A DNA stretch of 59,836 nt, counting the filler, from Catajapyx aquilonaris (Eukaryota): assembly GCA_000934665.2 (NCBI GenBank). It is 3 parts of 3 records of this genome, joined end to end, with 100 filler letters (N's around TTAATTAATTAA, not from the genome) between each part and the next. Parts side by side here need not be neighbours in the genome. Positions count along the whole stretch, not along the records: positions 1 to 19,882 come from JYFJ02006374.1; 2 more parts are not named here. One strand, given 5' to 3'. Under the pieces are notes generated by a model. That model made no database searches and was not told where the DNA came from. It worked only from the letters and a program-made list of their open reading frames with translations. The number at the start of each line of letters is the position of its first letter. The first letter of the stretch is position 1. Shown here in pieces: positions 7,601 through 39,970 of this stretch. Position numbers and translations under genes: made by a program.

Positions 7601-10156
7601 GAAGAGATCATTAAAACATGATGAATGTTTTGAAATCAGCAGGTTTTAAACCATCAAATTGGAGCCATTTGCAGGTTTGTCGAGCATATAATAAATGCAT
7701 GGTAAAATAAATCGCAAGACAGTGAACCTTTAATAACAATTTAGCGATGGTTTTCTCCAATTTATGACCAATAAATTGAAAATTTCACAACTTTTGATCT
7801 AACCAAGATATTGACCTGAAATTTTGAGGATATCTCTCTTTGAACATGTGCAACAAGTATGCCAAATATCTAAGATGGTCAGGTGACATTCCATGTTTTC
7901 TCTGCATGACCTGACATGTTATGACCCTACTTTCTTTTTCTATCAGAGAGTGCTCAGCACTCACGCAACATATTTTTGTGGATTGCACTGGCATTTTCCC
8001 CTGTGGTGATCCACCGCCTATTGCCCTGGTGTTTCACAACTCGTGTATAATAAATGCATTTCTTTTTTTGTGTGTGTGTGAAACAGGCTTTAAGGCTCAG
8101 GGATGTTTTAGAAGCCAAAATTTTGGGTTAAAAATCCAGGCCCTTTCTAGAGAGGTGGGTCAAGGTTCTAGACATGATTTTACATGGCATCCAAAAGTAC
8201 AGGATCATGGAAAAAGAATGTCCAAATTTAAAAACCCTATAACTTGAACACTTGTAAACATATCTTAATGATTTAAGTTTTGAAATGCTAAGAAATGTCT
8301 AAGTTTAGGTCTCACCATAGTATGTTTTGATATGAAATTAATTTGTCACTTGGCAGATTAAAAAGCCGGTATTCAGTCCCTTGCCAAACCTGCTCAATTG
8401 TGTCTGGAGATACCGTTGCAATCCTATCCTGTAGGTGCTGGAGATGCCTGATCTTTACACCACACACATTGTTCTTGATGATGCACATAAAAAGTCACCT
8501 CACCCGTGAAACAAACGTGCTGCAGAAAAGTATCATTTGTTCAGCCTCCAAGTGTGCGAAGTCTTGAATGAGAAGTTTCCCCATTACTACACCNCCCCCC
8601 CCCCCCCCCGACTTTTTTGTGGAGATACTTGTATGGTGAAAAGATCCAGCATCTCCAGCACACACAGTATAAGATTACACTGGTAACGCCAGACATGCCT
8701 GAATGGGTTACGTATGACACCGATTACCGTATTTAGCTCCAAAAAGCATTAACAGCTGACATGGGCAAACATTAACTGACATCAGAAAATGCACCCCATG
8801 TCAGTATCTTGATGTAATTTTGACACATGGGTGGTAAACAAGATCAAAATAAGTAGCAATAGGTCACTCTTTTCTGGCCCTTGAGAGGAAAATGAAATGC
8901 TGGAAGTAACCTAATGCTTTATGATTACTGAAAAGGAGCTAAAGCCTGTTTCACAAACTCGGTGTTGCGATGGTGTCCAACCAGGTGGACTTTCTGCGTC
9001 CAATTAGCGGGAGGCCCACCCGCCCTCCCACGCTCAGCCATCGCACACAGCATTTGTGAATAGCCCATCGCAAGTTTTCTGCGCTCCACACACCGCACTT
9101 GTGCAACGCAGAGTTTGTGAAACAGGCTTAAGGTGGTTGGGTAGTTATGGCCACATCCTAAGAAGTTCATGAAAGTTGCACGATTTACAGAAAAAAGTGT
9201 GCTCTTTAAAATAAGCCCATAAAAACGGGTACTTACTGTTCAATTTATTGAACCACCGACACCTAAACATAGCTAATTTTATCATTGGCCTTATGGAAAA
9301 ACGGCAAGAAACAGCAAAAAAATGCCAAAAATCTTACTTGAAAATCCTAACATATGTACATAAAACTATCTTTTGAAAGCTTGAACTGTGTAGAGTAAAT
9401 TGGCCGCAGAAAATCGCAATGGTGTGTACGTAAGAAGACCTTGTTCCGAATTTTAAGTTCAACTTGTGGAATGTTTTTTACAGGCTCTGATTTGACTTAA
9501 GATTCACTACCCAACCACCTTAAGTAATGAGAATTTTTATAAGCAGTGTTCCTTGTTGGATCACAAGATAATTATAAGGCTGCTAATTGGGTAAGAAATT
9601 GAAATCTTCCCTGGTACTCCTCTCCATACCTTTTCTTTGCTGACATGCAGGGCCGGAAGGACATCTTTGACAGTCCTCTCCACCAGGACTCCTCCAATAA
9701 GCCGGAAGCACCTGCGGCCAGGGTCCACATCTTTCAGTGTTTCTGCCACAAGGCTAGAAACGAGAAAATTCCATGAACTCCCTATTATGTCATTACAATT
9801 AAAACTTAGTAGCAACTATTAAACCATTGTCACAAGACCATTTCGTCTGCCAGTGCCTCAAAAATAAAATCAAAATAAAATCGGAGCAATATTTGACACA
9901 GAGAGTGGAGCCCAAGAGGAGCCCCTCCCTGACTACGAAAGCGTGCCACTGACGCATGGTTCCTCATCGATACTGACTTGTGCTCATTATGGTCTTGCTC
10001 AAGCTCAGCTAGCTTGGTGGCCAGTTGCCTCTGATCGTTCCTAAGCAGGTTGAACCCATGTACGATCTCTTCCTGCGACTTCTGGCCGACCACTTTCGAA
10101 CCCGACGGTTTCTTCGACGCATCGCTCGTACTCGCTTGCACCTCGGAAGACGCCAT
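1640..10156 (-). CDS. PFDN2: Prefoldin subunit 2, complete 3-exon gene (~175 aa)
   Basis: Exons 10156-9978 (ATG...EEIVHGFNLLRNDQRQLATKLAELEQDHNEH), 9753-9630 (LVAETLKDVDPGRRCFRLIGGVLVERTVKDVLPAL) and 1864-1640 (FAGAIEVMKQQLESKGRELNDYKEKWNIR...GVLVSEKM*). GT-AG sites and phases are consistent. Intron 2 is 1865-9629. Confidence 0.95.
2775..2865. mobile_element. PIF/Harbinger (Tourist-like) MITE; the right end of a second copy lies at 1-27
   Basis: TIR GGGGTCGTGCAAATACCACGTGACCG...CGGTCACGTGGTATTTGCACGGCCCC with TTA TSD. The same terminus followed by TAA opens the window. Confidence 0.8.
2946..3097 (-). mobile_element. tRNA-derived SINE, family A
   Basis: Minus strand shows A-box TGGCCGAGATGG, B-box GGTTCTAATCC and an (AAT)n tail. 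Related copy at ~54290-54553. Confidence 0.65.
3111..3349 (-). mobile_element. SINE family B, degraded copy
   Basis: Reverse-complement similarity to the + strand copy at 38585-38935 (shared CATCTCGTGCAGAG, CTTCGTCTCGGGTGGAA, AGACTAATCCA). Confidence 0.6.
3400..4150 (-). mobile_element. Decayed DNA transposase (Sola-type DDD, tentatively Sola2)
   Basis: ORF 3714-4103 has YFTDGCAEQFKN...FFATGHGKSSGDGIGGTVK and continues through frameshifts (PGTQSFHHF-like). Superfamily name is from memory of the motifs. Confidence 0.6.
4743..5018. mobile_element. hAT MITE
   Basis: TIR TAGGGCTGTG...CACAGCCCTA with 8-bp TSD GGCACCCC/GGCATCCC and internal TAACCG repeats. It interrupts the + strand copy of the transposase tail. 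Confidence 0.85.
5147..5971. mobile_element. Palindromic mariner-derived element (two 5' ends head-to-head)
   Basis: CAGGGTGTTTATAAAAGAATGG TIRs extend ~270 bp, TA TSD. Transposase remnants MATLQE..., SRELNMTKTTIWKVL and WLVFTDEATF. Inner perfect 96-bp inverted repeat 5433-5528/5539-5634. Confidence 0.9.
6093..6583. mobile_element. MITE with 3-bp ATT TSD (PIF/Harbinger-related)
   Basis: TIR AGTGTTGTCCGATTGA...TCAATCGGACAACACT. ATT at 6090-6092 and 6584-6586. The empty site is preserved in the inverted copy near 6770. Confidence 0.85.
7179..7572. mobile_element. Tc1/mariner MITE with long TIRs
   Basis: ~120-bp imperfect TIRs CA(C/G)GGTGGTCCAACTTCAAGTGTCGTTTTATAACGGC, TA flanks. Confidence 0.85.
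8944..9128. mobile_element. Harbinger-like MITE
   Basis: TIR AGCCTGTTTCACAAACTC...GAGTTTGTGAAACAGGCT with TAA TSD. Confidence 0.8.
9132..9519. mobile_element. TTAA-targeting non-autonomous DNA element (Kolobok-like)
   Basis: TIR GGTGGTTGGGTAGT...ACTACCCAACCACC flanked by TTAA (9128-9131, 9520-9523). Confidence 0.8.
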
Positions 10157-12800
10157 CTTTCCCTTTCTTCCGCTTGCTTTTTTTTTTCTTCTTCTTCGTC
10201 CCACCGGGAGAGCGGGAATTGTCATACGGGCGCTAGAGCTCAAAATAGTTCACATAAAGTTGAGTACTTGGACTTCCTACCGCTAGGTGTAACATAATTG
10301 ACAAGCATTTTACATAAATGTATCGGACGGATATTACATATTATACTGTAAATATTATTTTATATATTTCATTATGGATTTATGGCCGATATCTATGACC
10401 TCTATGACATTCCAGGTGCCAGTGCCGCTGGGTACAGCAGCGGGTGGAAGGTACACTATTAGAGGGTCGCATAATCAAGTGTCGCACGATGTCGCATATT
10501 TATTATTTTGGGCACAGTGATTTTGGGTGACATCAGGTGACAGCATGTGTGACACGAATATTGAGAGCAGTCATTCTCGGACCCCCACATCAAAGGCTAT
10601 TATGAACCCATGTATGATATAGTACTGTATCCGGGTATAACACCATGTAATATAATATGATACCGTAATTAAATTGTAATACATATTTATAGAGACATGA
10701 AATATGCACCCCCCCCCCCCCGCCCAATTATCTGCGAGTACCTGACCAGGCTTCAGATTATTATTATTATTATTTTGTATATGTGTGGTCATACGAGGAT
10801 ATTATAAGGACCTCAATATCCGCTGGCAACCCCATATCTGTTTGGGAAACGCCGTGAAGATGATGATGATGAAATATGCAGAAAAGCTGAAAAATTTTGG
10901 ATTTTGAATAATATATTTTAGTTGTTGAGTCATGCAAATGAATGCAAAAGGGAAATCGTACAAGTTCACCCGTATTAACAGATGTTATTCATAATTGCAT
11001 CGAGAATAAAATAATGTCATCAAGGACAAACTACCACCCAGCTTGTGATTGCCAAAAATAAATAAAGAATACCATATTTCGTCATTTCTTCTGTCTGCAT
11101 CTGCAAAGACCGTATATGAAGCTTGGTCCCTTGCTGACTTGATCTTTGGGCAAGGGCGGGCAAAGGTCATGGCGGAAGAAGGAATCCACGACAAACCTTA
11201 ACGTAACTTCATAGAGATTAGAGTGCGGTGGCCGCATAATTGCCAGCGCTGATTCCAGGTATCCGAAAGATCTGGGGTACGTCAATCAAGATGAATCTTG
11301 ACGTCAATGCTGTTGCTATGGGAGCTGATTTGAATTTCGGGAGTTCTGCGCAGCTGCCATCTGACGGCGCATGTAGTAGGCTTCTGAAAGTGAGGTACTG
11401 TACCGTAACGGGTGGCAAATTAAAACTGATGGGATACGATTCTTTGACTGCATACTTTTACGAGGTCAATTTTGATATGCTTTTGATAATTATAGTTTTC
11501 AATTTTCAATTTTTTAAATGCAGTGTTGGAGTTTCGGTGCGGGAATTTTAAGCTGTTAACTTCTCAAGTAAGTTGTGGGCATGGGCGTAAAGAAGAGGTT
11601 ACGATTTCCCTATAACAGTAAGTAAGTTAGAGGCAGACAAAGGCAATGGTGAAATACAGTAGTCTGCAAAAATATTGATTTTTGCCAATACATATATATA
11701 TATATAGCTGGGTTTGTTCTTGATTGCATTTTATTATCGATGCAAATTCTGATCATATATTGGATAACTTCTACAGTTAGGAGCTTTACTATACCCTTTT
11801 ATAGTCATTTGTATGACTTATTAACTAAAATCCAATTAACTGTAAAAAGAAATTTTGCAAGGGATCTGTATTTTTAATTTTTATACCTAAATAAGCAGAA
11901 ATTACAATTTAATTATTACATGCTGAAATAACATTTAATTGGGGTTCATATAATGTTTAGATTTTGACAGTGCGGAATATTCCATCTTCAGCTTCCTCAA
12001 GGGGGTGGTGGGTGGCTTGGAAGAGTCCAGAAGCAATTGGGGCCCAGCAGGTGAGCAATGCACAGGTAGATTGATTGGATCCGTCAGCATCACTAGAGGA
12101 GCACCGACTCATCTTCTGCCCACATTTATTTCGTGGAGTACCAGGGATGTGCCTACTATTTAGTGAGGCAGTTTTAGGGGAGGAAAAAGATTTGCACCCT
12201 CAAATCCTGTAGGTAGGCCAACTTCCTGATGCAACAAGTGGGAAGGAGTGAATGCAGAAACGACATTTTTAATTCCATATGCTTACTATGTAGATGTTTA
12301 TTTAATGATGGTACCGGTATGTGGTATAGGATGTAAGGGGGTAGGATAAAAGCTTCCCAAGACCAAGGAAGTACCAGATGAACCAGCTAGTGTTCAAATA
12401 CATTTGCATAAAATATGGGTATACTTGCTGGACTTCCCCTGATGGATGTAAGATGCCTGAATATTGCCAGGTTCTTTCCACATTTGATATACGCGTAAGA
12501 CTACTATCATGTGTTGTAGTTTAAATATTATAAGCTACATTTTACAATATTTGAGAGACCTGCATAATATGACATCACATAACCAGTGGGCTGTATGCAG
12601 TGGAAGGGAGAAGTTACACTAGTGGAGAATTCACCTATCCCGCTATGTAAGATTATTATTACTATATTATTAAGATTACGGCAATTCCTGATTCCAAATT
12701 TAATCAGTAAGGGCGTTATGCCGTAATGCGTCAGAGTAGGCTCCCAAATGGATTCCTACTCGTGTACCGTTTGAACCTTTTTCTCAGATGATGAGAGTTT

Positions 12801-13359
12801 TGTGACAGGACAAAACCAAGACACACATAGGGTTGTAAACGTATCTCATTTTATTTGTCAGACATAGAGGACACTGCCAAAATACACTATTGCGGCGACA
12901 TCTCACCCTCGTTGTGGCTAGGTAGCCCCTGATGTATCTGACATCGTCTGGGTTGGACTTCCTTCGGGCTAGCCTAGTCCGGGTTTGGAACCATCAGCAC
13001 GGTTGGGACCAAACAGTCGGTCTTCCCTCCTTCAGACTTCAGGTGTGATGTCGTCTCTGGCTCTCTACTGGCTTCGTACTCGCTTACTCTAGCTCGCTAG
13101 CTTACTCTCGTACTGGCTTACTGCCTTCCCCTTATTTATAGAGTCGGAACCGGCTGTCAATGTCGCTAGAGTCTCAGGGCAATTACCCTGTAGAGCTCAC
13201 ATGACTTTACTCAACAGAACAGGACGTGTGGTCAAGCGGCTGAGGATGTGTCAGCCGATACAGAGGTTATTGGGTGCGCAAGCTGCCCGGGTTTTTTTTA
13301 CTGGAATGGACTCAATGTCCTCATGTGCAACCGTGTGGTTATGACTCATACAGGTCACA
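12801..13359 (-). mobile_element. 3' LTR of an LTR retrotransposon
   Basis: TGTGAC...GTCACA termini. On the minus strand a purine tract (AGTGGGGG) sits just upstream, TATAAATAA is at ~13135 and AATAAA at ~12852. Confidence 0.7.
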
Positions 13360-13738
13360 AGCCCCCACTATGTTATTGTAAGGCGTGACTCGCCTTCTGG
13401 AAGTGGTTACACATGAGTTCACAGCTCCCCTTAGAATAGCGCTCATGTTGCACTTTGTGAAACATTGACACCCAAAAAAATAGGCTAAGTTTAACCCCGA
13501 TCATAACAATATTCACCTTGTTTCCATAAGCTTTGTGAGTGGTGGGAGATGAAGAAATTTGATATTGATTGCATCAGAGCACAAACAGATCCCACTGCAC
13601 TAAGTTAATTTTGTGGGAAGAATTTTAGGTTTCTTTCATGTTTGTGTTTTCTAGAGGTGTACTTTTCTGTCACGAGAGATATGTACAAGTTTTGTAAGAG
13701 CTCAAATACATGTACCGTCAAGTTATTAGCTCTTGGTA

Positions 13739-14254
13739 TCGTATTACCTCTCATATTGCGGCATGCCGGTGTAGGTGAGGTCAACCAGTTTTTTAAAATG
13801 CTTGATCTGGTGGCTATACCGGCATGCCGGTATAAGGCGAGGTTTTCACATGTTACATTATCCTTTCCGAACTTGACATTTGCCTGAAAAGCAAAATTCA
13901 CATAAAGGCTATCAAAAAGGCCCATTTTCTGGCAATAATCTCTATTTAAACAGTATGTTGGAGCAGAGGGTTCCCCTGTCAAAGCAGGCTGACGATGGGA
14001 TTGGTCACACAATCTCCATTTTTTACATGCACTGTGCAACAGAAGTTGCATATTCTCACAGCTTGTACACTCGCCCATTTTCATTGTAACATTATTTTAG
14101 TATGGTACCAGATGCATTCCAAAAAATTTGGCAAAGATCAAAATTACGGAAATCTACCTCGGTTATTGTAGCATGCCACCCACCCCCGGGTTATACCGGC
14201 ATGCTGGTCGACCTCGTTTTATACCGGCGTGCCGCAATATGAGAGGTAATACGG
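13739..14254. mobile_element. pogo/Tc2-type MITE
   Basis: TIR (T/C)CGTATTACCTCTCATATTGCGGCA...TGCCGCAATATGAGAGGTAATACGG, TA flanks. Confidence 0.8.
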
Positions 14255-14622
14255 TATCACATCAATGCAACATACTGTAGTTGTTTTCTTATATTGATTT
14301 TAAGTCAAACGTAACTTTCAGTTTTTTCCTACATGGTCTATTAACCAGCAGATGACAGCTTTCAAGCCAAAATTGACCTTGCACCTTGAAGTTACCTTTC
14401 AGTTCTAAGAAATTATTCGGATTACAACATCACAATCAATTATTTAGCTTGAATTTTAGAGCTGTACTTGTTGAATGAGTGGTCCTTTAAAATAAAGGCA
14501 GGATATTCATTTCTACGTAAAAGTGGTAGGACTTGTAAACATACATAAATGCTATAGTGTTACATTGATGTGTTAGCCATTGTACTTCCATTCAAAATTA
14601 TTTTGCTTTGCAGCAGGACAGC

Positions 14623-17600
14623 ATGCCAAAACATTTTCCAGTGCACCGCAAGGAGACTACAGAATTGGAAGTCAAGAGAAGATGCCCTGATCAACCTGAT
14701 CAGGTTCGTAATAAATTAAGCCCTATTGCATGCCCTTATGAACCATTATAAGCTGTTCTCATGTCCTTTTAGTTTTCTCTCTGAAAGAGGAAGTGTGCAC
14801 ATACTGAAGCAAAAATACAATTAAAATATTTCCTCAGGATCAAACCATTCCTGAAACAAACCCAAGTGTCCCCAGAATCCACATCTGTTGTGCAGTGGTG
14901 GAAAAAAATTCTTGTTCCCCCAAAAGCGGCACAAAGTGACCCCTCCCACCTGTATGTGTGCTGCTTCCAAAGGCACAGGGCAGTTTTTCCAGCAATGTAC
15001 ACAGGATTTACAGCACACTACAGTACTGTACATGATGAACCTGAATTCATATGTATTGCTAGGTGCCAAAATTAGTTTCTGAGGCGCTTCATAAATTTTT
15101 ACATTTATGCAATTTGGAATTATGTGTTGGAAGAATATTTATTTATTTATTTAGTTTTATTTACCCCATTGAGAGAATCGGCACTCCATTAGGGGGGTGG
15201 AATACCACCATTTTACAGCTCGATTTTTCTGAAAATTTTCTTCACACATGGATGGGGCCAAGGATAGGGAAGGACAGAAGCAGCTGTGGCCTATTATACG
15301 GAAGTGATCACGGAATTATCCTGGGGGGACCGTGGAGAACCACAGAAAACCACGGTGAGGATCGCTGACCCTGGGAATTGAACCTAGGACCTCCCAATTA
15401 GCAGTCGGGCTCCTTAACCACCACACCAACCTGCTTCGGTTGTGTTGGAAGAATATATTGTGATTTGACATTTACTATGGTTCATCCTGCTTAACAAGCA
15501 TGCTACACGAGTTGAATTTGCAGCCATTGCGCTACATTAATAATAATAATAATTATTATTGTACTTGTTTTATTTTTCAAAATGCACCAGGTAGTCATAA
15601 TATGTTTGACATAATGTTAGATCAGGAATATTGAATTTTTGTACATGGGTGTTTTTATTTCCACAGAAGGATAAAATTGGCATCCTGGAGCGTGTCATAG
15701 TGAAGAACTTCATCTGCCATGACTCAGTCTGCGTGGATTTCTCAAAGCACATAAACATCATAATAGGAAAGAGTGCAGTATTGGAAGCTGTGATGGTTTG
15801 CTTGGGCTCAACAGCAAAAAAAAGGTCAGAAAATCTGAACAAGTTCATCAAGCAGGGCTATAAGCAGGCAAGCATTGAGGTCACACTTTCTAACCATGGA
15901 TGCCATGCCTACAATGCAAATGAATATGGAGAGACGATCCGCCTGCAAAGAATTCTCAATCTATCTGGAAGCAACTTTTTGAACGTGTGGTCATTAAGAG
16001 TGGGGCTGCCAGGCAGGTCTGGTGGGTGGCGACCAACTGAAGTGGAGGAGCTGCATGCCATCCTAACAAACCTCAACATCCACATTGACAGCCCCATTGT
16101 CATGCTCAACCAGGAGATTACCAGGTAAGTGTCATCCATGCTGTTGATATTCTTGAAGCTTACCAATTAATAATTAGCGTTTCTTATTATCGTTTCATAT
16201 TCATATTAATTCCATATTAACGTTTTATTGTGAGCCCTTCTGCAGCCCTTGGTTTTTGAACTGAGACATTGGCAATGACATCATATTGGTAGGATATGAT
16301 CATCAGCATGTGGGAAGAATGGGATAGCTACTGGGGAGAATGATTGTGACTCAATGCTTGCGGCCGTTTCCATAGTTGAGAAATGTCATGCACAATCTTG
16401 ATGACCACACTGAGGGCCTCAAATGAGGTTAGATTAAACACAATTTTTGTTGGTATCCTCATAATTTCATGTTGCTTAGGGCAATGGGTGGGAATATGGT
16501 ACTGTTTGTCATTTTTTCCCTACATGCTTTGCTATATGCAAACCACATTTTTGTCACTCACTGTCAGAGATAACTAGGACAGAGTTATGAAACAACATTA
16601 TGAAGTCATGACTTCAAGAACACCCTAATTCCAGTTGGAGTGATTTCGAGAAAAACAAAAAACTGTTCAACCACCATTTTTGGTAGGTATGTTCATTGAA
16701 TAAATTGAATGAATTCGCGTTGTTTTTGAAGTCAGAAGGTGGGGTAAACCCTACTGACCCTGTTCCCGTTCTTAACTCAATTTCGGAAAAAATTGTGGTT
16801 AGGGTGTTCTTGAAGCCATGGCTTCATTTGAGTCATCACTGTAAACAGTGTAAAGACTCACGTGTTTGAATGAAACAATATGTTCAATGACTTACATTCC
16901 AACCATTGTAGCTGCAGCATGTCAAGCTTAAGAAGAAAAATCAGGACCAAGTGGTTGAAATAATTTTTTCCTTCCTTCCAATTTTATATTGACATGTAAG
17001 AAGAGATCTTTTACGTTTCTCTGCATGAAAAAGAAGTTCACTGCCCCATTCCTGCCCACTCTCCAATGTCCAAATTCCATTACATGGTCCTGTTTATTGT
17101 AAATGGGCAACTGAATGTATACTTTCAGTTTACCAGCTCACAAAAGATAATATACTTGTTAGTTGCAACATGTTGAACAAGACAGATTCACCAGTTTCAG
17201 CAATTTTTAAATCCTTATATATCCAGAGCATTCCTGCATTCATCAACTAAACATCACCAGTACAAGTTCTTTGAACATGCTACCCTTTTGAAGAAGATAA
17301 TGGATTTATACTCTGAGGTGCAGAATAGTGTTGAACTGGCAAAGAAGAATTCACTGCAGCAAGAGAAAGAATTACAGAAAGAGCTTAAAAGGCAGGAAAA
17401 GCAACTGGAACTGCAGAAGAACATGGCCTTGGTCAGCCAGGTCCTGGGTGAGATGGAGCTCCCAAATCATGAACTTGATATGGTAGAGGTAGAAGTAGCT
17501 GAGCTGGGAGAAGAAGAAATATCCCAACAAGTGGTCTCAAGTGACACAAATTTGAATGAGCTGAGGGAGACAGCTACACTGGATATGGAGAACTCCGAAC

Positions 17601-17948
17601 AGAACAATGAAGGATTAAAGCAAAAGGTGGGCTTACTTCAGATGGAAGGTGTGGTTCATCAATAATTGGGTTTGTGCTTTAACTTGCTATAAGGAAATTG
17701 AAAATGCATGATAATTTATTATTGGAAACTATTTTTTGTGAGTTCTGGGCTAACCATTGTGAAAGTGTTTTCCTTTTAGCCTGTGAATTTCCAATGTAGT
17801 GCAGGTGCTGTGTCAGAGTTACGGCGACCCGACCATAAAGGCCCCTCGCCAATGTAGTGCAGGTGCTGTGAACTCATGCTAATTGTTTCAGATTGAGTCT
17901 GACCTCAGAATGGCCATTGGGAATGGGTGGGCCATATTGGGGAAATAA
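14623..17948 (+). CDS. SMC6-like protein, N-terminal head half plus short coiled coil; Walker A deleted; possibly truncated (~331 aa) or a pseudogene
   Basis: Exons 14623-14703, 15667-16124, 17227-17626 and putative 17892-17948 are in phase with GT-AG sites. They translate IGILERVIVKNFICH...NIIIGKSAVL...KFIKQG..ASIEVTLSN...YGETI...NIHIDSPIVMLNQEITR/AFL...YKFF..AT, colinear with the SMC6/Rad18 N-terminus. Confidence 0.8.
15137..15441 (-). mobile_element. tRNA-derived SINE family C (conserved invertebrate Deu/Inv-like body)
   Basis: Reverse complement of the 36872-37065 copy: GGTTTTCTGTGGTT...ATAGGCCACAGC, tRNA-like head and A-rich tail. Confidence 0.7.
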
Positions 17949-19603
17949 TGGAAACAATATTTGTTGGGGGTGCTGGCTACACTGGTTACTTGCTTGAATG
18001 TTTGGGTCAAGCCATTGGAGGAGGGCAAAACTACCCTCCAATTGTTATGATAACTACCCAGAAAACTTCATGTGAGCCATAGGGTACTGCACGTGTGTTG
18101 ATTGTTTATGAATTAAATAAGAACGTCAATAGAGCAGGATATGAGCATGATTATAATCAGAGCCGGCCTTAGGGGTGGGCAGTCCGGGCGACCGCCCGGA
18201 GCCCCGCGCCGTGTGACCTTGAACCCCCTTTATAGTGACCCACACTCATTTCACTGCAGCTGAGAGTATCCTGGGTTCAATCCCATGTCCCTCCCACCAG
18301 CTTTGAGTGGGTCCAGAGGGGAACAAACAATGTGTGCTTGTACGACATTAGCTGTGGGGATGGAAATGTGTGTTTTAACCAGCCCAGGGACACTTCTATC
18401 CCAGGGCAATAGAAAAAGCTGTGCCGTTATCTCTTCCGGCAGTGGTGCTAATATATGTGCAATGGAATCCTGCTGTGGAACTCGCATCTCCATAAGTCCA
18501 GCCCCTTTAGGCACAACTATGCACTAACGCCTACAGCTCTATATGGCTCTATAGGCGTTAGTGCATAGCTGTACCATAAGAGGCGCTGAACTTATGGAGA
18601 TGTCAGTTCCACAGCACAAGTGGGGCCCCACGGGGAGGTGCCGAGCCCTAGCGCCTCGCAAAGCGAATACACGCCTAAAGCAGCAACAAAATGAAACTTG
18701 TCTCATGAAAATTGAGCAATATTTGACAAAGTTATGTGTTTCTAATAGGGGTCATTCCATGTCAGTGGGGCCCCCTTTGTACCCTTGATGTGGCGGATTT
18801 GAATGATATTCACAGGTTATGGTGACCTAGCGCTGCTAAAACATTGTACCAAAGCGTTTTGAAATATTTTGATTTTTACCCGTTTTTTGGGGGGTGGTAA
18901 TTTTGAGCCTTTTCTTTGAGAGCCATTTTTCTTTTGGCTGTTTCTCCGCAACTAATCGTGAGACAGATGTGCTTTTGATATCAATTTACTCAGAAAGGTT
19001 GATATAATCGTATTCTATGGTTAATTTTAAAATTTTAAATTTTTGCGTTAGAAATATTGAAATTGCAAATTTTAAACATTTAATTTTTAAAATTATACCC
19101 CTTTATTTTACGCTGGTTTTCACGTATGTTGTAGCCCTACATGTGAACTACATGTGGCCATATCAGTCCTGTTGGCTAGTATAATACTAAGGAAGATTGG
19201 ACCTCTTAAGCGAGACCCCCTCCATATATGTCGTCATTATGATGGGTACACCCAACATGCAAATCGCCCCACCTTGCTCAGTGCAAATGTTGGGATGATC
19301 ACTGGTGAGAGTACGACACATGTAAGACTCCTTTGGTAGCCCACACCCCCCTCCCCAAGCAAACCCATGCCTCCCACCCCACAAACACACCTAGCCAATT
19401 ATAATTATATTGTAGTGGTCCTGTTGGCCACATTGTGTTATTGTTGCGTAGCAACAAGAATAGTGTTCAGTCTAGAATAAAAGGTTAGAGAGAACTGACG
19501 TGTTCTGGAACTCGGGAACTGCCTTGTCTGGCCATGGTCCCTGCTGGTGGTAAGGGGTCCACTACAATATTATATATAATAAGATTACGCTTCTGCTCAC
19601 CCT

Positions 19604-19830
19604 TCACGCGGATGTGGAGACTTGACACGTCCACTCCTTGAACCATATGGCTTGATCGAACAGAACTTCCTGACATTTCTGGAAGAAGGAGGGTCGACTG
19701 TTGTTGATGTACTCCTCTAGGTCATGCGGGAAGCATCTGTGGACACTCCTGATAGCTTCGGCTATGGTAGCGACTAGGTGGAACAGACTAGCGGTCTCCA
19801 GCGACTCGGGTTGGAGGTAAACAGGCATGG
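19604..19830 (-). CDS. Probable terminal coding exon of an unidentified gene cut by the contig end
   Basis: Acceptor TTGTGTTGCAG precedes a 75-codon, GC-richer frame (MPVYLQPESLETASLFHLVATIAEAIRSVHRCFPHDLEEYI...). Product not recognised. Confidence 0.45.
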
Positions 19831-19882
19831 CTGCAACACAACAAAAGTCTCGACATTATTTTGACCCTCTTTTTGAAATAAT

Positions 19883-19982
19883 NNNNNNNNNNNNNNNNNN
19901 NNNNNNNNNNNNNNNNNNNNNNNNNNTTAATTAATTAANNNNNNNNNNNNNNNNNNNNNNNNNNNNNNNNNNNNNNNNNNNN
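19883..19982. other. Artificial contig spacer
   Basis: N44-TTAATTAATTAA-N44, exactly 100 nt, with stops in all six frames. Confidence 0.97.
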
Positions 19983-20338
19983 AGCACAGACACGAGGACC
20001 AAACAAGTCCCTCGTCTCCTGTCGCCAAGACTTCTGCAAGAGCGACCGTTACGGCTGATCCTGCTCCGACGCCATCTTGATCTTGTGTACATATACTGTG
20101 CATTAATTGAATTTCCAATAGTCCAGGGTGAAAAAGGAGTGGTTGGAATAATATAGCTGATCCATGCATCGCTTAGTGCAAAATTTATACAATGTGTTTA
20201 TGTGGGGCCTAAATTAATTAAATAATTGCAGTATCTCAAAATAAAAATTTAGGAATAAGAGCGAGGCATGACAGTTCTCTATTGGGCCATTCAATTTTAC
20301 GTGTATACATGTTTCTATATAATAATATACCTTTTCAG

Positions 20339-20620
20339 GCGGGTATAGACATCCAGGCTCTTGTAAACAACAAGAGCGATGGGGTTACTCAGCCCTACAT
20401 ACTGGCTGTTGGGCAGAACCACACGAAAAATTGCAAGCATTTCAGCGTGCTGGACAGGAATTCTGTGGATTTGGGTCAAGCAGATGCGCTTAAAGCATTT
20501 GATTTTCTCTACAAATGCCACCATGTATTTGATGTTGAGTATGATGGGCATCTGGAGAATTTTTACTCGTTTGTGGATGCATTTTTGTATCAGGTGCCAC
20601 ACAAGAAACTGAATACAAAA
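20339..20620 (+). mobile_element. Exon fragment of a DNA-transposon accessory ORF (SAMD3-like, CMC-type)
   Basis: Acceptor CTTTTCAG, then TQPYILAVG...ALKAFDFLYKCHHVFDVEYD..LENFYSFV. Confidence 0.55.
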
Positions 20621-20779
20621 GAGTGGCCACATTTATTTAGCTCTTTTTTGGAGCGAAAAACACACATTTTTCGAGTCATAGTGGCCACTTTCCTCTCTTT
20701 TTTCGAGCCTAAATTAGTCTTTTCGAGCTATTTCATTTTATTATATTTCACGCTTTTAATCTTAGCACTTTGAAGGAGC

Positions 20780-21092
20780 TATTAGACGAGCATCAGGTCT
20801 GGCCCACCAGCCCTCCCAAGAACAGGTAGATGAACTTATTCTTGCTATGGGAGATCAGGCAGACGACACTCTGGACTCATTTGGCCTGTCTCCAGAAGAG
20901 GAGGCCGATTATGAAAGCGTCACAGCAAAGTTTGAGGAATACTTTATAGTGGGAAGGCACATTATCTTTGATAGAGTGCGATTTCACTCACGAGTGCAGG
21001 AGCCCGGAGAAACAGTGGATACCTTTGCCACTGCTCTTCACTCCTTAGCCCAACATTGTAAATTTGGCACATTGCACGATGAGATGATACGA
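20780..21092 (+). mobile_element. Ty3/Gypsy (K02A2.6-like) gag fragment
   Basis: AMGDQADD...YESVTAKFEEYF...IFDRVRFHSRVQEPGETVDTFATALHSLAQHCKFG.LHDEMIR. Confidence 0.85.
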
Positions 21093-21221
21093 TTGGGGAG
21101 GGGGGGGGGGGAGCAGCTGGTAGCTGCAGTTGATGAGTGGTTGGGGGGCAGGAGCGAAATTTTTCTTTTGCACGGCATCCAAGGACTAGAACAGAGATGG
21201 GAAAAGGCGTTTGAGATATGA
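21093..21221 (+). mobile_element. Mariner transposase C-terminal fragment
   Basis: EQLVAAVDEWL...EIFLLHGIQGLEQRWEK matches the mariner AV..WL......F..GI..L..RW.K tail. Confidence 0.75.
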
Positions 21222-21900
21222 CATTATGACTGATATACAAACTCCCGAACAACAACAGCCAATAGTAGACCAACTAACATTGTCTCAGTTCAAATCAGGA
21301 CTTTATTCGAATGGAGTTAAAAAGAATTTGGCCATCTTGAAGCCAAAGACGCTAGATGAAGCTTTGAAATTGGCTCAGGAGGAGGAAGGTCGCGAGGCTG
21401 GAAATTTCTATCGTGACAAAAAAAACCAAACATGGGGTTTTGGTTACGCATCCTGAGGATGATGTGACCGCGACGTTGGCCGACAAGGTAGCCTCTTTGG
21501 CTCATCAATTGGCAAGATATCAACTCGAAATGGAGAGAAGCGTGGAAGAGGCTAGGGCCGCGGTTAATCAACCTCCACCTGCATTTCCATATCCTCCGCC
21601 TACATTCCGAAATCCAAGAGCAGGGAGAGTAAACTTTGCGCCGGGAACGCCTCCGAGACCACCTTTGAGGTGTTTCCAGTGTAATAGTGACCAACACTTA
21701 ATTGCGGGATGCCCCGTGAAAACCGTGTCCCCAAGGCCCGCAAATAACTTGCCCCCAAGCCCAGTAAAATCCTTGCCTCCAAGTCCGTGTCATCAGTGTG
21801 GCGACTGGCACTGGAGACGCGAGTGTCCATTAAATAGAAATGGTACACCCCAAGGTGGCCAAGGCAGGCGGGATAATTACAGGGCCCCTCCTCACCTGCA
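21222..21900 (+). mobile_element. Two abutting Gypsy gag fragments, the second with two zinc knuckles
   Basis: QFKSGL...KPKTLDEALKLAQEEE, then CFQCNSDQHLIAGC and CHQCGDWHWRREC. Confidence 0.8.
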
Positions 21901-22999
21901 TTTTGCCGGAGCCTACACCGGGAGTTCCACCGCCCCCGGTGACACTCAAAGTTGCGGGGCATGCCATCCCCCACGGGTCCCTGATCATTTGCCCGGAGAC
22001 CTTCAGTGGGGGGGATGGAGATCCTCCGTGTAAATAACAATTGGATATCCGACTGGCGTTGGCTGCCTCCAAACGCGACCCTGGTCGCGAGGCCCTGAAA
22101 GCAGACCATCTTCGATCAGATGAGGGTCGGAGGAATAGGACCCCGTCCGGTGTCAACTACGACGGCCGCCACGGATCAGCTGGGCGAATCCGGCTCGGAG
22201 GTCCCTGAGCACGCTGGTGAAACTGTGACGACCCCGGAGCCCGCCAGGAATGTGGTGTTTCGGGTAGTGGCGTCGCAGTGCCCGAGGCTCCGTTTTGGGG
22301 CCGCTGTCCCGACACCGCAGCCTGGAACAGGGGTGGCCGGCCGCGGAGGGAAGAGGAGGAGGCCTGTTGCCGCCCCCCCGGACAACACCACCTGGGGTCC
22401 GAAATCAATGGCCAGTAGCGGTGGAGCGGCCTCGTCATCGCCAGAGTTGCAGTAACACCGTGCCGGCCCAATTGACCACCACACCGGCGCGGCGGACAGC
22501 GCACCGACGGACGACACCCGGGTTCTTTCATATCCTGCCCTGCAACCCAACTCCGAACCCCGGCGCCTCCTGCTGACATCCCCCAGGAGGTCAGAGTGGT
22601 CCGCCCGACTGAGGGACGGCCAGAGGAGACCAACCGTCATTCACATAAGAGGATCACTGCCAGTGAGAGTGTGGGATGGTGGTGTTTCAGGGTTTGCAAT
22701 GTTTATTTCTTTTTTTTATGTTTCTTATTTTTATTCAGTAATATTAGACGGTTTTTTGTCTTTAATTAACTAGTGGATAGGATTCATTACCCCCCCTTGC
22801 GTCATTTTCCTTGCTGTATATCTGTCAAACACGAGATTCCCATGTCTGGGAAATATACCTATACTTATATTTACAAACCAAAAGAATTTTTGTCTGTCCG
22901 GAAAAATTTTCTGAAGAGGGAGGAGATTTGTCACCCAGCGAGGCCTATACCATTTACGTACGCGTTATACATCAAGCTTATACTACTTGATTTCGCCCG

Positions 23000-23570
23000 T
23001 TGTGCAATATCCTTTTAAACACCTGACACTTAGTCATCGGGATATTGCGCAGTTGAGCAGTATTAAATCGATGACAAGGAACAATTTTTCCTTATGCTGC
23101 AGAGTGCAGTTGCGAAAGAGGCGTTGCGCCACCCTCCGCACCTACACTTATTGCACCATAATGTCGCAAGTTTTAACTATAATTCTGCGCGTTAAAGGCA
23201 CTATTGGCCACTATAAAAGGCTCGCAGTTTCCCATCTCTCCAGTCCCTATCCAGAACGGACACCAGTGTATCCTCGATATGTAAGTACCTATCTATGTTT
23301 ATCTTTTATTTTAATGACTTAATAGCGTAATGTTAAATTCTTAGTACCATAATTAATAACTTTGTATTGAAGAAACATAATAAATGTCAGATTACTGTTA
23401 TACTGGTGTACTTCTTACTCTTTGGGTCTGATTATCGGAAAACTTGAACGTCAACTGGAAACCTGGGCTAATCACATTTAAGTTGATGACAGCGCAATGA
23501 TTACGTAAGGAGTTGCGTAACAGGTTACCCAATGTTAATCTCGTTTTCCTGCGCAAGTAGATGGGGTAAC
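23000..23570 (+). mobile_element. LTR-like fragment
   Basis: TATAAAAG at ~23212, AATAAA at ~23378, ends GGGGTAACA. Confidence 0.45.
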
Positions 23571-23609
23571 AGTCACCTTCACTGCATTTGCATTGCATTG
23601 CATTTGAGC

Positions 23610-24301
23610 ATTGCTACAGGATCATGTCCCAGTTGCGGATTGAGCTTCAAAGATTTTAGCTCAAGGTTAAGCCACATGTATACTTCACACCTTTCACGCT
23701 TGAGAGAATGCTTGGAAGCAATAGGCTTGAAGTTGTTGATGGATAACACTATAAGGAATAGGGGGGTGCAAACTGAAACCAGTCCTTCAGACGTTGAAAT
23801 AGAAACAGAAGTTGTTTACGGAACACCTCTTAAAGGCCCACAGATCATGCATGTGAGTTACTTACACTTACCTGCATGGGAGTGGACAGGACCACAAGAA
23901 GCCGTACCGTTAACAGTAGGCAGTAAAGAACCCGTATGGATAGATTTAGAGGCAAGAGATACTCCAGCAGTCTAGACTTAATCACTACGTTGAAATCAGT
24001 ACCAAGCGGAATGGAGATTATGCCAAGACAAAGAACAAAGTTGTACAAGGGGAAAGCAGAAAAGTGTCCAATGATAGAGTGTGCTTGTTCACTTAGCCAA
24101 TACATAAGTAGACCACCTCACTTGGTTAGTCACTTAAACACCAATTGCATGTATTGCCCCATTTGTTGCCGGTCGTGGTATAGCATCCTAGCTTGGATCA
24201 ATCATTTGGTAAACACTCATACAGAGTATATGAACACAGTATTGAAACAAACTGGTTACGAACACATTTTGCACTATGGAAAGACACAAGTCATTATGTA
24301 A
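23610..24301 (+). other. Two C2H2-like zinc-finger ORF fragments (probable retroelement accessory ORFs)
   Basis: CPSCGLSFKDFSSRLSHMYTSH and CPICCRSWYSILAWINHLVNTH. Confidence 0.45.
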
Positions 24302-24434
24302 ATGAATTGAGGCATTTAGAGATGGGGAAGTTATTGCTGCAACCACGCATGCCTCTCATCACCTTGAGAATGTCACGTACAGTCCAGATAGGCCACCTAC
24401 TCCTCCGCCCAGGAAGCCAAGAATCCGATTCGAA

Positions 24435-25170
24435 ATGCAGGACAATGGAGAGGTGATTAAGCAAACAATTCCAGTGGGCAACAACCCAGTACAGTCACGC
24501 CCTGACCAAATTACGTGCCCAATAGTTAATTTGCCAGTAGTAATTGAGTCAGCAGAATCTCGAGGTGAAGGAGGTGCAAAGATTGCTGAGTTAGCACCAC
24601 CGAAAGATAACACTGCAGTTATAAAAGCACTCACTCAATGCCTCATGATAAAGAACAAGGACAAAACCGATGAACTAGAGCCAGTCATATGGGACCGTGA
24701 AAGAGTCATTAGGGAGCAAGATACAGATCCAGTGATTAGGACGCTGAAACAAGAGATGAAGTCAGGCAAATTTGAGGCAGATTACGTTTTGGAGTATGAC
24801 ATATTGTTCAGAAAGGTAGCCCCTTCTTGGAATGAGAGAAGGGAAGAACTAGTGTTTCAGTTGTACGTACCGACAACAATGAGGCGGTACATAATGGAAG
24901 TGTTCCATGAGAGTGTGTTTGCACCGCACTACTCCGAAAAGAAAACGTTTGAGCGAATAAGAAGGCAGTACTTTTGGCCAGGACAAAAGAAAGACATAGA
25001 GAGCTAAGTCTGTAAGTCTAGTGTAAAATGCTTACAAAAGAAAGGAGCAACAAATAGCAAAGCACCATTACAGGCAGTAGACCCAGTTAATTATGAGGTC
25101 GAACCACGACGAAGTGGCCGGGACAGAAAACCACCCCAAAAGTATTCACCATGTAAAAAGCAGAAATAGC
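24435..25170 (+). mobile_element. Gypsy pol fragment (integrase HHCC region) plus polyprotein tail
   Basis: EQDTDPVI...LYVPTTMRRYIMEVFHESVFAPHYSEKKTFERIRRQYFWPG...C..C, then PRRSGRDRKPPQKY. Confidence 0.85.
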
Positions 25171-34789: not shown

Positions 34790-35245
34790 GTACCCACGGT
34801 GCATGCACCAAGTGTCCTGGTAACCAAAACCGAAGAGAACCAGAGGCAGTATTCTTTACATATGGATGGGAGTGCTGTGTGCTGCAATTTGGAAGATTTT
34901 GACACTTGTTTGGCCGGAATTTTGGCCCTGTATTTTACTTTTGATGTACAATACCCAAAAAAGTGTAGGAGTACACTATACTTCCTACAGGTAGAATTGG
35001 CAGGCATCAAGGAGACGCAGGAAAAAGTACCCATATCTGTCAGCAGACTGATGTCTTACTTATCGCTCAAAAGCCAGCTAAAAATAATCAAGAACCGCCT
35101 GAGGAACGCAATGGAAAACGAGTTCCTCAGGGCGGCAATTTTTATGGCCATGGAGAGAGACCTTACCTACAAAATAGATAATGTTGATGTGCTGGAAGCT
35201 TTAGCAAGGTCTTCTCCACTTCTCAGCCGACTTCTTTTGTATGAC
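34790..35245 (+). mobile_element. Chimeric cassette: SAMD3/CMC-type exon fused to an hAT transposase C-terminus
   Basis: ALYFTFDVQYPK..STLYFLQ joined to SQLKIIKNRLRNAM...ERDL...DVLEALA. 296 bp of it recurs at 35960-36255. Confidence 0.7.
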
Positions 35246-35960
35246 GTGGCCGAATTTGCCACCAGAATCAAAAAACTTGGGCGAAAAAATAACCAGAAGC
35301 TTGGGCAGTAGGAGAGTCTCCCATGTTGCAGGCACAGCTATTGGCTCAGTACAGAAAGGGACTCACTTCGAGAAATATCCGGCAAATGCTAAGCTGGAAA
35401 GACCCCAAAACATTAGAGCAGGCAGTAGAACTGGCTCGTAAGGAAGAAACCAATGAGAAAGGTTATATGTACAAGTCGCGAAAGGGAAGCGAATTGCATG
35501 CTATTGACATGCTATTGACGGAACTAATCCGAGCGTACAGGGTAAGGCACACTGTACGTTTTGCGGAAAAGTAGGTCATTGAGCTGTCTATTGCTACGCA
35601 AGAATAGGAAGGAAAACAACTCCACCTCAAGGGCACGGTCAGGCGCAAAATAAGAGATGTTGTAATCGAGGGCCTTCCATGTAGGATGTTATTGCACTCA
35701 GGCGCAAGAATAAGTGTAATAAGTGATGATGTCTGGCAACGCATATGTCAGGGCAATAAACTGTACAGTGGAAATGATGTAATAGGAGTAGGAGTAACAG
35801 GGGACTTGTTGTTGCCATTGTTGGGAAGCCGCAGAATATGGATAGATGTAGGTAATAGAAGATATTACCACCAACTTTGGGTAGCTAGCAAGTTGCCGTT
35901 GAGAATGGCAGAAGGTATTTTAGGTTGGGACTTTATGCAAGACGGGGATCTAAAAATAAA
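35246..35960 (+). mobile_element. Gypsy gag and aspartic protease fragments
   Basis: VAEFATRIKKLG, PKTLEQAVELA, then MLLHSGARISVIS...GILGWDFM (degenerate DSGA motif). Confidence 0.75.
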
Positions 35961-36255
35961 CTTTTGATGTACAATACCCAAAAAAGTGTAGGAGTACACT
36001 ATACTTCCTGCAGGTAGAATTGGCAGGCATCAAGGAGACGCAGGAAAAAGTACCCATATCTGTCAGAAGACTGATGTCTTACTTATCGCTCAAAAGCCAG
36101 CTAAAAATAATCAAGAACCGCCTGAGGAACGCAATGGAAAACGAGTTCCTCAGGGCGGCAATTTTTATGGCCGTGGAGAGAGACCTTACCTACAAAATAG
36201 ATAATGTTGATGTGCTGGAAGCTTTTGCAAGGTCTTCTCCACTTCTCAGCCGACT

Positions 36256-36765
36256 CTGTGAGAAGAGAATAGTGTTAAATCCTAAGCCTGTAATTGTGCC
36301 TTTGACTCATAATGGACAGTGGTTGTTCAACACTGCCGAAGATATTAAGTTACACATAAGCTGCCCCAAATCCGACAAGGACGCTGGGCATACGAGTCAC
36401 GTATTGTTGAGTGGTACTGGACGTGCGGTCATTCCAATGGGTTGCTCAGCCCATGCCACAGGGCTGCGAACAATTTCATTGGAAGAACACAGCGGAGGAA
36501 ACAAGTGGATGGACAATTTATTTTCCCTCATTTGGACGGTGTATTAACTGATGTAGAACATCTGTTCGTTGCTGCCCGCCAGCATGTGAATATGTTGCAG
36601 CATAAAAATGTGAGCAAAGTGATGCGAATGTTGAGAGAAACTGAAAATATTGTTGGTAAACACGAGTACCAGGTGCCACTAAGACAGTTCCAACACTCAC
36701 TGAAGGAATTAAATGAACGGGATAGTGATAATTTGCTAAACGATATCAGTAGTTTACCGTTGTAA
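36256..36765 (+). mobile_element. Retroelement envelope-like fragment
   Basis: CEKRIV...GQWLF...LHISCP...LSGTGRAVIPMGCSA resembles the C-terminal part of errantivirus-type env; assignment from memory. Confidence 0.5.
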
Positions 36766-39870: not shown

Positions 39871-39970
39871 NNNNNNNNNNNNNNNNNNNNNNNNNNNNNN
39901 NNNNNNNNNNNNNNTTAATTAATTAANNNNNNNNNNNNNNNNNNNNNNNNNNNNNNNNNNNNNNNNNNNN
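39871..39970. other. Artificial contig spacer
   Basis: N44-TTAATTAATTAA-N44. Confidence 0.97.

Follow-up and report, generated by a model that had tools for sequence, protein, structure and literature searches.

A candidate SMC6 gene of Catajapyx aquilonaris with an in-frame deletion of the Walker A loop, possibly a recently inactivated copy

We analysed a 59,836-nt stretch of DNA from Catajapyx aquilonaris (GCA_000934665.2; hereafter the window), which is composed of three pieces of 19,882, 19,888, and 19,866 nt. The first piece carries, at 14623–17626 on the plus strand, what appears from homology to be the 5' portion of a chromosome-repair gene, an SMC6 of insect type. Putative exon 1 (14623–14703, plus strand; 27 codons, phase 0) was placed by its ATG, its donor, and its phase only. 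It has no homology support, since the N-terminal tails of SMC6 proteins lack conservation and blastp alignments mostly begin at product residues 27–32. A start exon is required upstream because no in-frame ATG precedes the head domain in exon 2. Exon 2 (15667–16124, plus strand) was assigned by homology to the N-terminal half of the SMC6 ATPase head, with its strands, a shortened Walker A, the following helix, an R-loop arginine, and a Q-loop glutamine. Exon 3 (17227–17626, plus strand) carries the end of this head half, the neck (QYKFF), and ~130 residues of the first coiled-coil strand.

These exons join in phase without a stop, adding up to 939 nt (81 + 458 + 400 nt) or 313 codons, and the initial annotation of a spliced frame open for more than 310 codons across three exons was confirmed. 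Their donors are CAG/GTTCGT, CAG/GTAAGT, and AAG/GTGGGC, respectively, and the acceptors of exons 2 and 3 end in TTTCCACAG and TATATCCAG. The start codon and all four internal splice dinucleotides are intact, and the two known introns of the SMC6 locus are 963 and 1,102 nt long. Within the 313 codons we found no stop, frameshift, or lost splice site, the sole lesion being an in-frame deletion of the P-loop. Read-through beyond exon 3 meets a stop at 17663–17665, as had been described before.

The SMC6 identity of the locus was supported by several similarity searches. Exon 2 (15667–16122 of the window, 152 aa) matched human SMC6 (9lwi_A) with an E-value of 6.2e-20 and yeast SMC6 with ~3e-9, while the match to Rad50 was weaker (2e-5). 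Its score against the Pfam profile SMC_N (PF02463; E 1.1e-6, 28.6 bits) fell below the gathering cut-off of 40, which is expected because exon 2 is half a domain, covering only profile positions 2–95 of 220. In a library of 1.84 billion proteins, exon 2 matched 1103 proteins at E ≤ 0.001 with a best identity of 45%, and the named top matches were SMC6 proteins from insects, chelicerates, molluscs, lamprey, sponge, and fungi. The spliced product was colinear in blastp with approximately residues 50–350 of SMC6 proteins across the joint of exons 2 and 3 (E 1e-33 to 1e-38), for example residues 30–306 with 64–353 of an Octopus protein and 28–312 with 56–333 of a lamprey cluster. These alignments reach product residues 297–313 against SMC6 residues 275–353, so that the neck and the outgoing coiled-coil strand are also colinear with SMC6. 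The earlier description of the locus as SMC6-derived, spliced, and lacking the P-loop was supported.

When 151 SMC6-like proteins were searched against the window by tblastn (E ≤ 0.01), 152 of the 173 HSPs fell on exon 2 and 21 on exon 3, and no SMC6 exon was found elsewhere in the window. Relaxing the threshold to E ≤ 50 added only scattered, non-colinear matches elsewhere. The best of these (E 0.013, minus strand, 26.5–26.7 kb) is approximately at chance level for 151 queries, and the ORFs around it contained nothing SMC-like. Word-based protein searches with exon 2 gave neither a parent nor a family, returning one of 356 candidates in the longer length class (a fungal SMC6 at 35%) and none of 11 in the near length class. 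The best identity of the neighbouring genes in the databases was only 54–59%. In a quick tree the copy grouped with insect SMC6 (SH-aLRT 92, not starred), and in a FastTree phylogeny of 152 rows it was placed in no supported group.

The deletion lies at the Walker A motif. The frame reads NIIIG-KSAVL around the remnant G-K-S (GGA AAG AGT; 15766–15774, plus strand), with the five residues x-N-G-S-G gone between the glycine and the lysine. The HMMER alignments opened a five-residue gap exactly at the Walker A x-N-G-S-G of human and yeast SMC6, in agreement with the initial annotation, which had placed GGA AAG AGT at these positions and counted five codons missing. The motif G-x-x-G-x-G-K-[ST], absent from this copy, is present in 146 of the 151 SMC6-like proteins retrieved from the 1.84-billion-protein library, and the five-residue deletion is shared by none of the 151. 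The five proteins without the canonical motif include fungal proteins reading IIG-GKS, one of them filed under a plant name; the other non-canonical rows are fragments from wheat and Aegilops, a fungal model with a different start, and an unnamed Logan protein without GKS.

Sequencing data from two samples carried the same deletion. Contigs rebuilt from three runs of one sample, the source sample (X1, X2, and X3), span 15412/15413–16636 with no differences from the assembly, and a 174-nt contig from a different sample and study (X5) spans 15650–15823 with no differences and no gaps, extending 116 nt to one side of the deletion site and 49 nt to the other. No insertion at this site was found among the variant rows of the rebuilt contigs. 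The 15-nt in-frame deletion is real and not an assembly error, and its presence in a second sample and study suggests that it is common or fixed. The X5 contigs (15650–15823 and 16425–16717) include intron sequence, so they are uninformative on splicing. An AF2 model of exon 2 had a mean pLDDT of 79.7, with somewhat lower confidence around the deletion junction (74–78), and predicted a helix beginning right after G-K-S; such a model would not discriminate between a dead and a live gene.

The apparent 3' end of the gene was less secure. The initial annotation had added a fourth exon (17892–17948, plus strand) of 18 codons ending in TAA. The codons and the stop are present, but the exon has no similarity to any SMC6, and 53 of the 122 AG sites in 17640–19882 are likewise followed by at least 18 open codons, so that it is no better than chance. 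The polyadenylation signal AATAAA proposed near 18115 reads ATTAAA (18112–18117), and the sole AATAAA in 17601–19882 sits at 19476. The piece bearing the SMC6 exons ends at 19882, 2,256 nt past exon 3 and within high-copy repeats. It is followed at 19883–19982 by a spacer of the form N44-TTAATTAATTAA-N44, which from this form appears to be artificial and recurs identically at 39871–39970. Since the spacer begins there, the DNA beyond 19882 does not adjoin the gene, and an argument that no hinge occurs within 42 kb was dropped for this reason.

In the window, in which only 2,256 nt of contiguous DNA follow exon 3, tblastn detected neither a hinge nor a C-terminal head half, and scanning for motifs revealed neither the signature motif nor Walker B. 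No coiled-coil-like (charged helical) frame and no SMC6 match were detected in 17627–19882. The head continues into ~130 residues of canonical arm, and no C-terminal head half was found on the piece ending at 19882; any exons for the hinge and the C-terminal head would have to be sought past the end of the 19.9-kb piece. The earlier proposal of a mini-SMC6 was not upheld, because the truncation depended on the unsupported 18-codon exon and on non-adjoining DNA past 19882.

The exons lie in a single-copy segment (~14394–18136) flanked on both sides by high-copy repeats. In intron 1, a high-copy SINE-like insertion (15139–15440, family D2) is flanked by the 16-nt direct repeat TGTGTTGGAAGAATAT. 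Its summed contig depth was ~69,000, compared to ~29 in its flanks, with many loose ends at 15440, and ARAGORN called no tRNA in it. Intron 2 contains a small inverted-repeat element (I4; 16600–16827) with 29-nt arms that are 93% complementary, over which the depth rose ~2–3 fold. A high-copy repeat lies directly upstream of the exon 4 candidate (~17808–17870), and high-copy repeats extend from 18137 to the end of the piece at 19882 (summed depth 530–6,400, compared to ~23–37 for single-copy DNA). No Rfam families were found in 13000–20000.

Apart from the deletion, the ATP-site residues of the N-terminal half are kept, namely Lys35 and Ser36 of Walker A, Arg53, and Gln149, and all four occupy invariant columns, of which there are 12, in an alignment of 27 sequences including this copy; from this alignment, we read Arg53 as the probable R-loop and Gln149 as the probable Q-loop. 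That the remaining ATP-site residues are all kept argues that the deletion is recent and that the gene was under selection until lately. In a neutral-decay simulation on the coding sequence, the intact state (313 codons, start codon, and four splice dinucleotides) survived with probabilities of 0.57 at 1% divergence, 0.36 at 2%, 0.08 at 5%, and 0.007 at 10%, values that consider substitutions only and are far lower with an assumed indel rate. An intact frame cannot separate a just-dead from a live gene.

The copy is also unusually divergent. At 35.9%, its median identity to the 151 SMC6 heads ranked last among 152, against a median of medians of 46%, and it kept 38 of 53 conserved columns (72%, median 89%), or 38 of 48 outside the deletion. 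It showed 20–36 unique changes, compared to 11–21 in three insect SMC6 proteins, an excess that was significant in 8 of 15 tests and in none of the five against the butterfly. Its terminal branch was 0.93 in the FastTree phylogeny (median 0.33) and 3.56 in the quick tree (0.87–2.22 for the three insects). Part of this divergence reflects the selection of the comparison set, since a top-150 list favours slowly evolving SMC6 proteins. The divergence counts against a recent loss and fits a longer period of relaxed or altered selection.

Exon 2 was covered by one contig only, at depths of 29, 33.9, and 23.8 in X1, X2, and X3, respectively, and there were no variant rows in the exons in the contigs of these runs. 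Among the contigs of three DNA runs read whole, none besides that of the locus itself matched the exons at ≥90% nucleotide identity, which argues against a young duplicate. The designation of the locus as a paralogue in the initial annotation was likewise not supported.

Our favoured reading, to which we give a probability of about 0.45, is that the locus is a recently inactivated SMC6 copy, ahead of a maintained paralogue unable to bind ATP. Under this reading, the start exon is followed on the piece by the first half of an ABC-type ATPase head, by the neck, and by ~130 residues of the coiled-coil strand leading outward. The 15-nt deletion has removed x-N-G-S-G, so that the strand now runs directly into Lys-Ser at the start of the helix. 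From established knowledge of P-loops and ABC-type SMC heads (PMC8327961 and PMC8665677), a protein without the Walker A loop could not hold the ATP phosphates, and ATP binding at the SMC6 site would be lost. The SMC6-side ATP site, composed of Walker A and B of SMC6 and the signature motif of SMC5, could then not form, and ATP-driven head engagement at this site would presumably be lost as well. The inactivating lesion would be recent, in a gene under purifying selection until lately, and the locus would be a null allele or a pseudogene of very young age, whether it derives from the species' SMC6 itself or from an old paralogue. The earlier reading as a young pseudogene may hold if it means a gene that was inactivated recently; a young duplicate was not supported. 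We do not read the locus as an evolved mini-SMC6, and a decoy or regulator role is no more than a possibility. A fixed null caught before its second lesion requires a short time window, which counts against recent inactivation. Smc6-null flies are viable. Several protist lineages have lost the SMC5/6 complex, which is called "not absolutely indispensable" (PMC8665677).

The next reading, which we consider unlikely, is a maintained SMC6 paralogue that cannot bind ATP (a pseudo-ATPase), full-length or short. Such a protein would still pair with SMC5 and/or bind the NSE4 kleisin via its neck, and its complexes, unable to engage heads at the SMC6 site, would make it a non-catalytic partner, brake, or decoy of SMC5/6. 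Frame and splice sites that have stayed intact in the most divergent copy of the set, the long terminal branch in both trees, the deletion in two samples, and the lack of a close parent copy all fit this view, as do the SMC6 duplicates in Daphnia pulex (PMC2680839) and the opossum (PMC9937046) and the precedent of SMCL-1, a dead SMC-like regulator (PMC5373644). However, an old dead ATPase is expected to lose the lysine, serine, arginine, and glutamine that are all kept here, and such residues have been lost in SMCL-1 (PMC5373644). Moreover, the deletion is common to none of the 151 fetched proteins, the word-based searches in both length classes gave no close relative, and the acceleration is no greater than that of butterfly SMC6. 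That an insect lineage keeps and expresses a P-loop-less SMC6 with neck and arm seems to us somewhat less likely still; such a kept copy would make SMC5/6 naturally one-sided, or would compete for SMC5 and NSE4 as an SMC6 without catalysis.

It is improbable that the locus is a truncated partial duplicate of the first three SMC6 exons, dead since birth, which arose by segmental duplication or transposon capture and left the half-head product of the initial annotation as a relic that makes no working protein. The position of the single-copy exon segment between high-copy repeats and the lack of a coiled-coil-like frame or SMC6 match in 17627–19882 are consistent with this origin, and the annotations of wheat and Aegilops include short fragments from the SMC6 N-terminus. 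From established knowledge and the motif layout in PMC8665677, a half head that lacks the C-terminal partner cannot complete the ABC fold. However, the contigs contain no parent at ≥90% identity, and past ~5–8% neutral change the intact 313-codon frame and splice sites have P ≤ 0.08 from substitutions alone. There are also just 2,256 nt of true downstream DNA, and an intron of that length, which exceeds 963 and 1,102 nt, would be unremarkable among repeats. Finally, an assembly or sequencing artefact hiding a real gene with an intact P-loop is very improbable: contigs drop rare variants, so that a minority intact allele is conceivable, but independent contigs from three runs of one sample and from a second sample and study show no differences.

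If the locus is a fresh null or young pseudogene, it would represent ordinary gene decay in a complex that is dispensable to flies and several protist lineages. Its main value would then be an annotation warning, the short product having arisen because the assembly is fragmented and the window is a composite. A copy that is both conserved and expressed would amount to an SMC6 whose ATP site is naturally dead. It would then bear on how the two SMC5/6 ATP sites divide work and on whether animals regulate SMC5/6 by dead paralogues, as worms do for condensin, and it would provide a ready-made separation-of-function variant for probing the role of the SMC6-side ATP site.

Compared to canonical SMC6, the nu-SMC of SMC5/6 (human 9lwi_A, yeast 7qcd_B/8i4x_B, and the proteins of Timema, Pyrocoelia, and Pararge), the copy is alike in the colinear order of its N-terminal head half, Q-loop, arginine, neck motif, and arm start. 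It is unlike them in lacking five Walker A residues and in its family identity, the lowest of 152, and relative to the family consensus it carries an insert of 7 residues and lacks 2 residues at a gap. Additional SMC6 copies, one of them a pseudogene, occur in other animals: the crustacean Daphnia pulex has the duplicates SMC6A and SMC6B (PMC2680839), and the opossum, a marsupial, has an X-linked Smc6l cluster with one pseudogene (PMC9937046). The accessible parts of these two papers make no mention of P-loop loss in either set of copies, and the comparison would apply only if our locus is itself a duplicate. The model for the decoy idea raised in the initial annotation is SMCL-1 of Caenorhabditis elegans, a negative regulator derived from an SMC protein, with a dead ATPase and the ability to bind SMC subunits (PMC5373644). 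It is derived from the condensin subunit SMC-4 and has lost the coils, the hinge, and hydrolysis residues (PMC5373644). Unlike SMCL-1, the copy described here keeps the start of the arm and all other ATP-site residues of its half.

The SMC6-like gene lies on the plus strand of the first piece. Putative exon 1 (14623–14703) starts with an ATG at 14623 and has 27 codons up to a GT donor (14703|GTTCGT), exon 2 (15667–16124) has 152 codons plus two bases before a consensus donor (CAG|GTAAGT), and exon 3 (17227–17626) finishes the split codon and adds 133 codons before the donor AAG|GTGGGC. The two introns are 963 nt and 1,102 nt long. Joined, the exons make a 939-nt reading frame of 313 codons with no stop, and all four splice dinucleotides are present, in agreement with the three-exon open frame of more than 310 codons described in the initial annotation. 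Exon 2 matched residues 44–193 of human SMC6 (9lwi_A) with an E-value of 6.2e-20 and yeast SMC6 with ~3e-9, and Rad50 heads matched more weakly (~2e-5). The Pfam SMC_N score (E 1.1e-6, 28.6 bits) was below the cut-off of 40, as expected for half a domain. Among 1.84 billion representative proteins, exon 2 had 1103 matches at E ≤ 0.001 (393 at E ≤ 1e-10), with a top identity of at most 45%. The named matches, from 30 looked up, were SMC6 of insects, a sea spider, a horseshoe crab, a spider, molluscs, lampreys, a sponge, fungi and an alga; short SMC6-like fragments of wheat and Aegilops were also among them. The spliced product was colinear with SMC6 residues ~50–350 through the exon 2/3 joint (E 1e-33 to 1e-38) and so follows the canonical protein into the arm, a result in favour of the proposed splicing.

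At 15766–15774, G-K-S comes in frame straight after the strand N-I-I-I. HMMER alignments to human and yeast SMC6 showed a five-residue gap at their x-N-G-S-G, consistent with the earlier observation that Walker A is five codons short. Walker A sits in the N-terminal block of SMC proteins (PMC8665677), ATP is sandwiched by Walker A and B of one SMC and the signature motif of its partner, and ATP hydrolysis is described as essential to SMC function (PMC8327961). With the loop removed, the SMC6 site would be predicted to bind no nucleotide. Walker A (G-x-x-G-x-G-K-[ST]) was present in 146 of 151 fetched relatives, and the Catajapyx deletion was found in none of the other five. Two of these, one fungal and one plant-labelled and fungal-looking, read IIG-GKS, probably from mis-called introns; the third was a wheat/Aegilops cluster of 119–123-residue fragments with GQNG-KS, and the remaining two were a fungal model starting inside the motif and an unnamed record without GKS.

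The wheat and Aegilops proteins are annotated as SMC6-like N-terminal fragments of 119–123 residues. In P0137, the representative of the six-member cluster and the one member read, GQNG-KS makes Walker A two residues shorter, a further example of a short SMC6 head fragment whose P-loop is damaged.

A 100-base block, N44-TTAATTAATTAA-N44, occurs twice in identical form, at 19883–19982 and 39871–39970, and separates the window into three pieces (19,882, 19,888 and 19,866 nt). The block looks like an artificial six-frame-stop linker, so DNA past 19882 is not adjacent to the SMC6-like gene, and features on separate pieces should not be taken as neighbours. The early termination that had been proposed does not stand as written, since contiguous DNA ends at 19882, within repeats, no more than 2,256 nt 3′ of exon 3. 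From 18137 onward this is high-copy repeat (summed depth hundreds to thousands), and short-read scaffolds typically break in such regions. Neither SMC6 similarity nor a coiled-coil-like frame was found in the 2,256 nt, and a third intron of more than 2.3 kb is unremarkable. The supposed 18-codon terminal exon (17892–17948) had no similarity to anything and is a chance-level open frame; it is statistically empty because 53 of 122 AG sites within 17640–19882 are also followed by at least 18 open codons. The poly(A) signal given as AATAAA reads ATTAAA at 18112. A perfect 22-nt direct repeat (17791–17812 and 17849–17870, 58 nt apart) borders a high-copy element just 5′ of the supposed exon.

Upstream on the first piece, the first coding exon of prefoldin subunit 2 (9833–10156, minus strand) matched 7wu7_2 with an E-value of 2.4e-7; this gene is transcribed away from the SMC6-like gene, with start codons ~4.4 kb apart. 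Just 5′ of exon 1 is an element with 40-nt terminal inverted repeats, 90% complementary (13734–14259), of very high copy number (summed depth ~9,000–17,000). Intron 1 contains a 302-nt SINE-like insertion (15139–15440) with a 16-nt target-site duplication and the top copy number on the piece (summed depth ~69,000), in which ARAGORN found no tRNA. The second piece carries retrotransposon remains on the plus strand (20222–25007): long frames whose Cys/His spacing is zinc-knuckle-like and, at 24306–25004, an integrase zinc-binding domain (PF17921, E 2.5e-11). It also carries two near-identical plus-strand frames (34790–35311 and 35960–36547), ~1.2 kb apart, with the common stretch FTFDVQYPKKCRSTLYFLQVELAGIKETQEKVPISV...; Pfam gave no family for them, and they are probably a repeated mobile-element gene. 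On the third piece are two exons of fasciclin-2 (NCAM-type) with Ig domains (48833–50057, minus strand). Its best database identity was 54–59%, to mayflies, termites and cockroaches, so the lineage is poorly represented in databases; judged from these identities, the source appears insect-like and without a close relative in protein collections.

We favour, at a rough probability of 45%, the reading that the locus is an SMC6 gene copy with a recent in-frame inactivating deletion, either a null allele or a very young pseudogene. The remaining ATP-site residues of the N-terminal half are kept: the Walker A lysine and serine, the conserved arginine and the Q-loop glutamine. After loop loss these residues would serve no purpose, and their decay would be expected in an old dead ATPase; SMCL-1, an SMC-derived protein of Caenorhabditis elegans with a dead ATPase, has lost ATP-site residues (PMC5373644). 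We also simulated neutral change on the gene's own CDS, taking as the kept state an open frame, the start codon and the four splice dinucleotides. With substitutions alone and 1% change per site, this state survived with a probability of 0.57, which fell to 0.36 at 2%, 0.08 at 5% and 0.007 at 10%, and the values were much lower under an assumed indel rate; given this rapid loss, any neutral phase must have been short.

The main rival, a maintained ATP-dead SMC6 paralogue, is rather unlikely: the preserved ATP-site residues and the lack of the same deletion in any relative found argue against it, while the high divergence of the copy and the presence of the deletion in two samples speak for it. 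The copy was the most divergent head (median identity 35.9% vs 46%) in the comparison set, which was picked by similarity and is biased to slow evolvers. It kept 38 of 53 conserved columns (median 89%), and of the 15 columns lost, five are accounted for by the deletion. Relative-rate counts gave 20–36 unique changes vs 11–21 in three insect SMC6 proteins, with a significant difference in 8 of 15 comparisons and in 0 of 5 against butterfly SMC6. In a quick tree the copy grouped with insect SMC6 on a long branch (SH-aLRT 92, not starred). We treated the acceleration as modest, because the set favours slow evolvers and SMC5 and SMC6 have known long branches in arthropods (PMC2680839).

A partial SMC6 duplicate, dead since birth, is less likely still. 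A young duplicate of a live parent was not supported, since three DNA runs, read whole, had no contig besides the locus's own on the exons at ≥90% identity.

Contigs of four public runs were aligned on 14000–19880. Three runs from one sample each had a 1,224–1,225-nt contig (15412/15413–16636) with zero differences and single-copy depth (29, 33.9 and 23.8), and a run from another sample and study had a 174-nt contig (15650–15823) with zero differences and zero gaps. The latter run also carries intron 2 sequence (16425–16717), so it represents DNA or unspliced material and is uninformative on splicing. The 15-nt deletion is thus seen in two samples and is neither an assembly error nor private to one data set, which makes an artefact highly improbable.

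SMC6 duplicates confined to single lineages, one pseudogene among them, have been published for Daphnia and opossum, so either outcome at the Catajapyx locus, a dead copy or a maintained paralogue, would be an already known kind of case.
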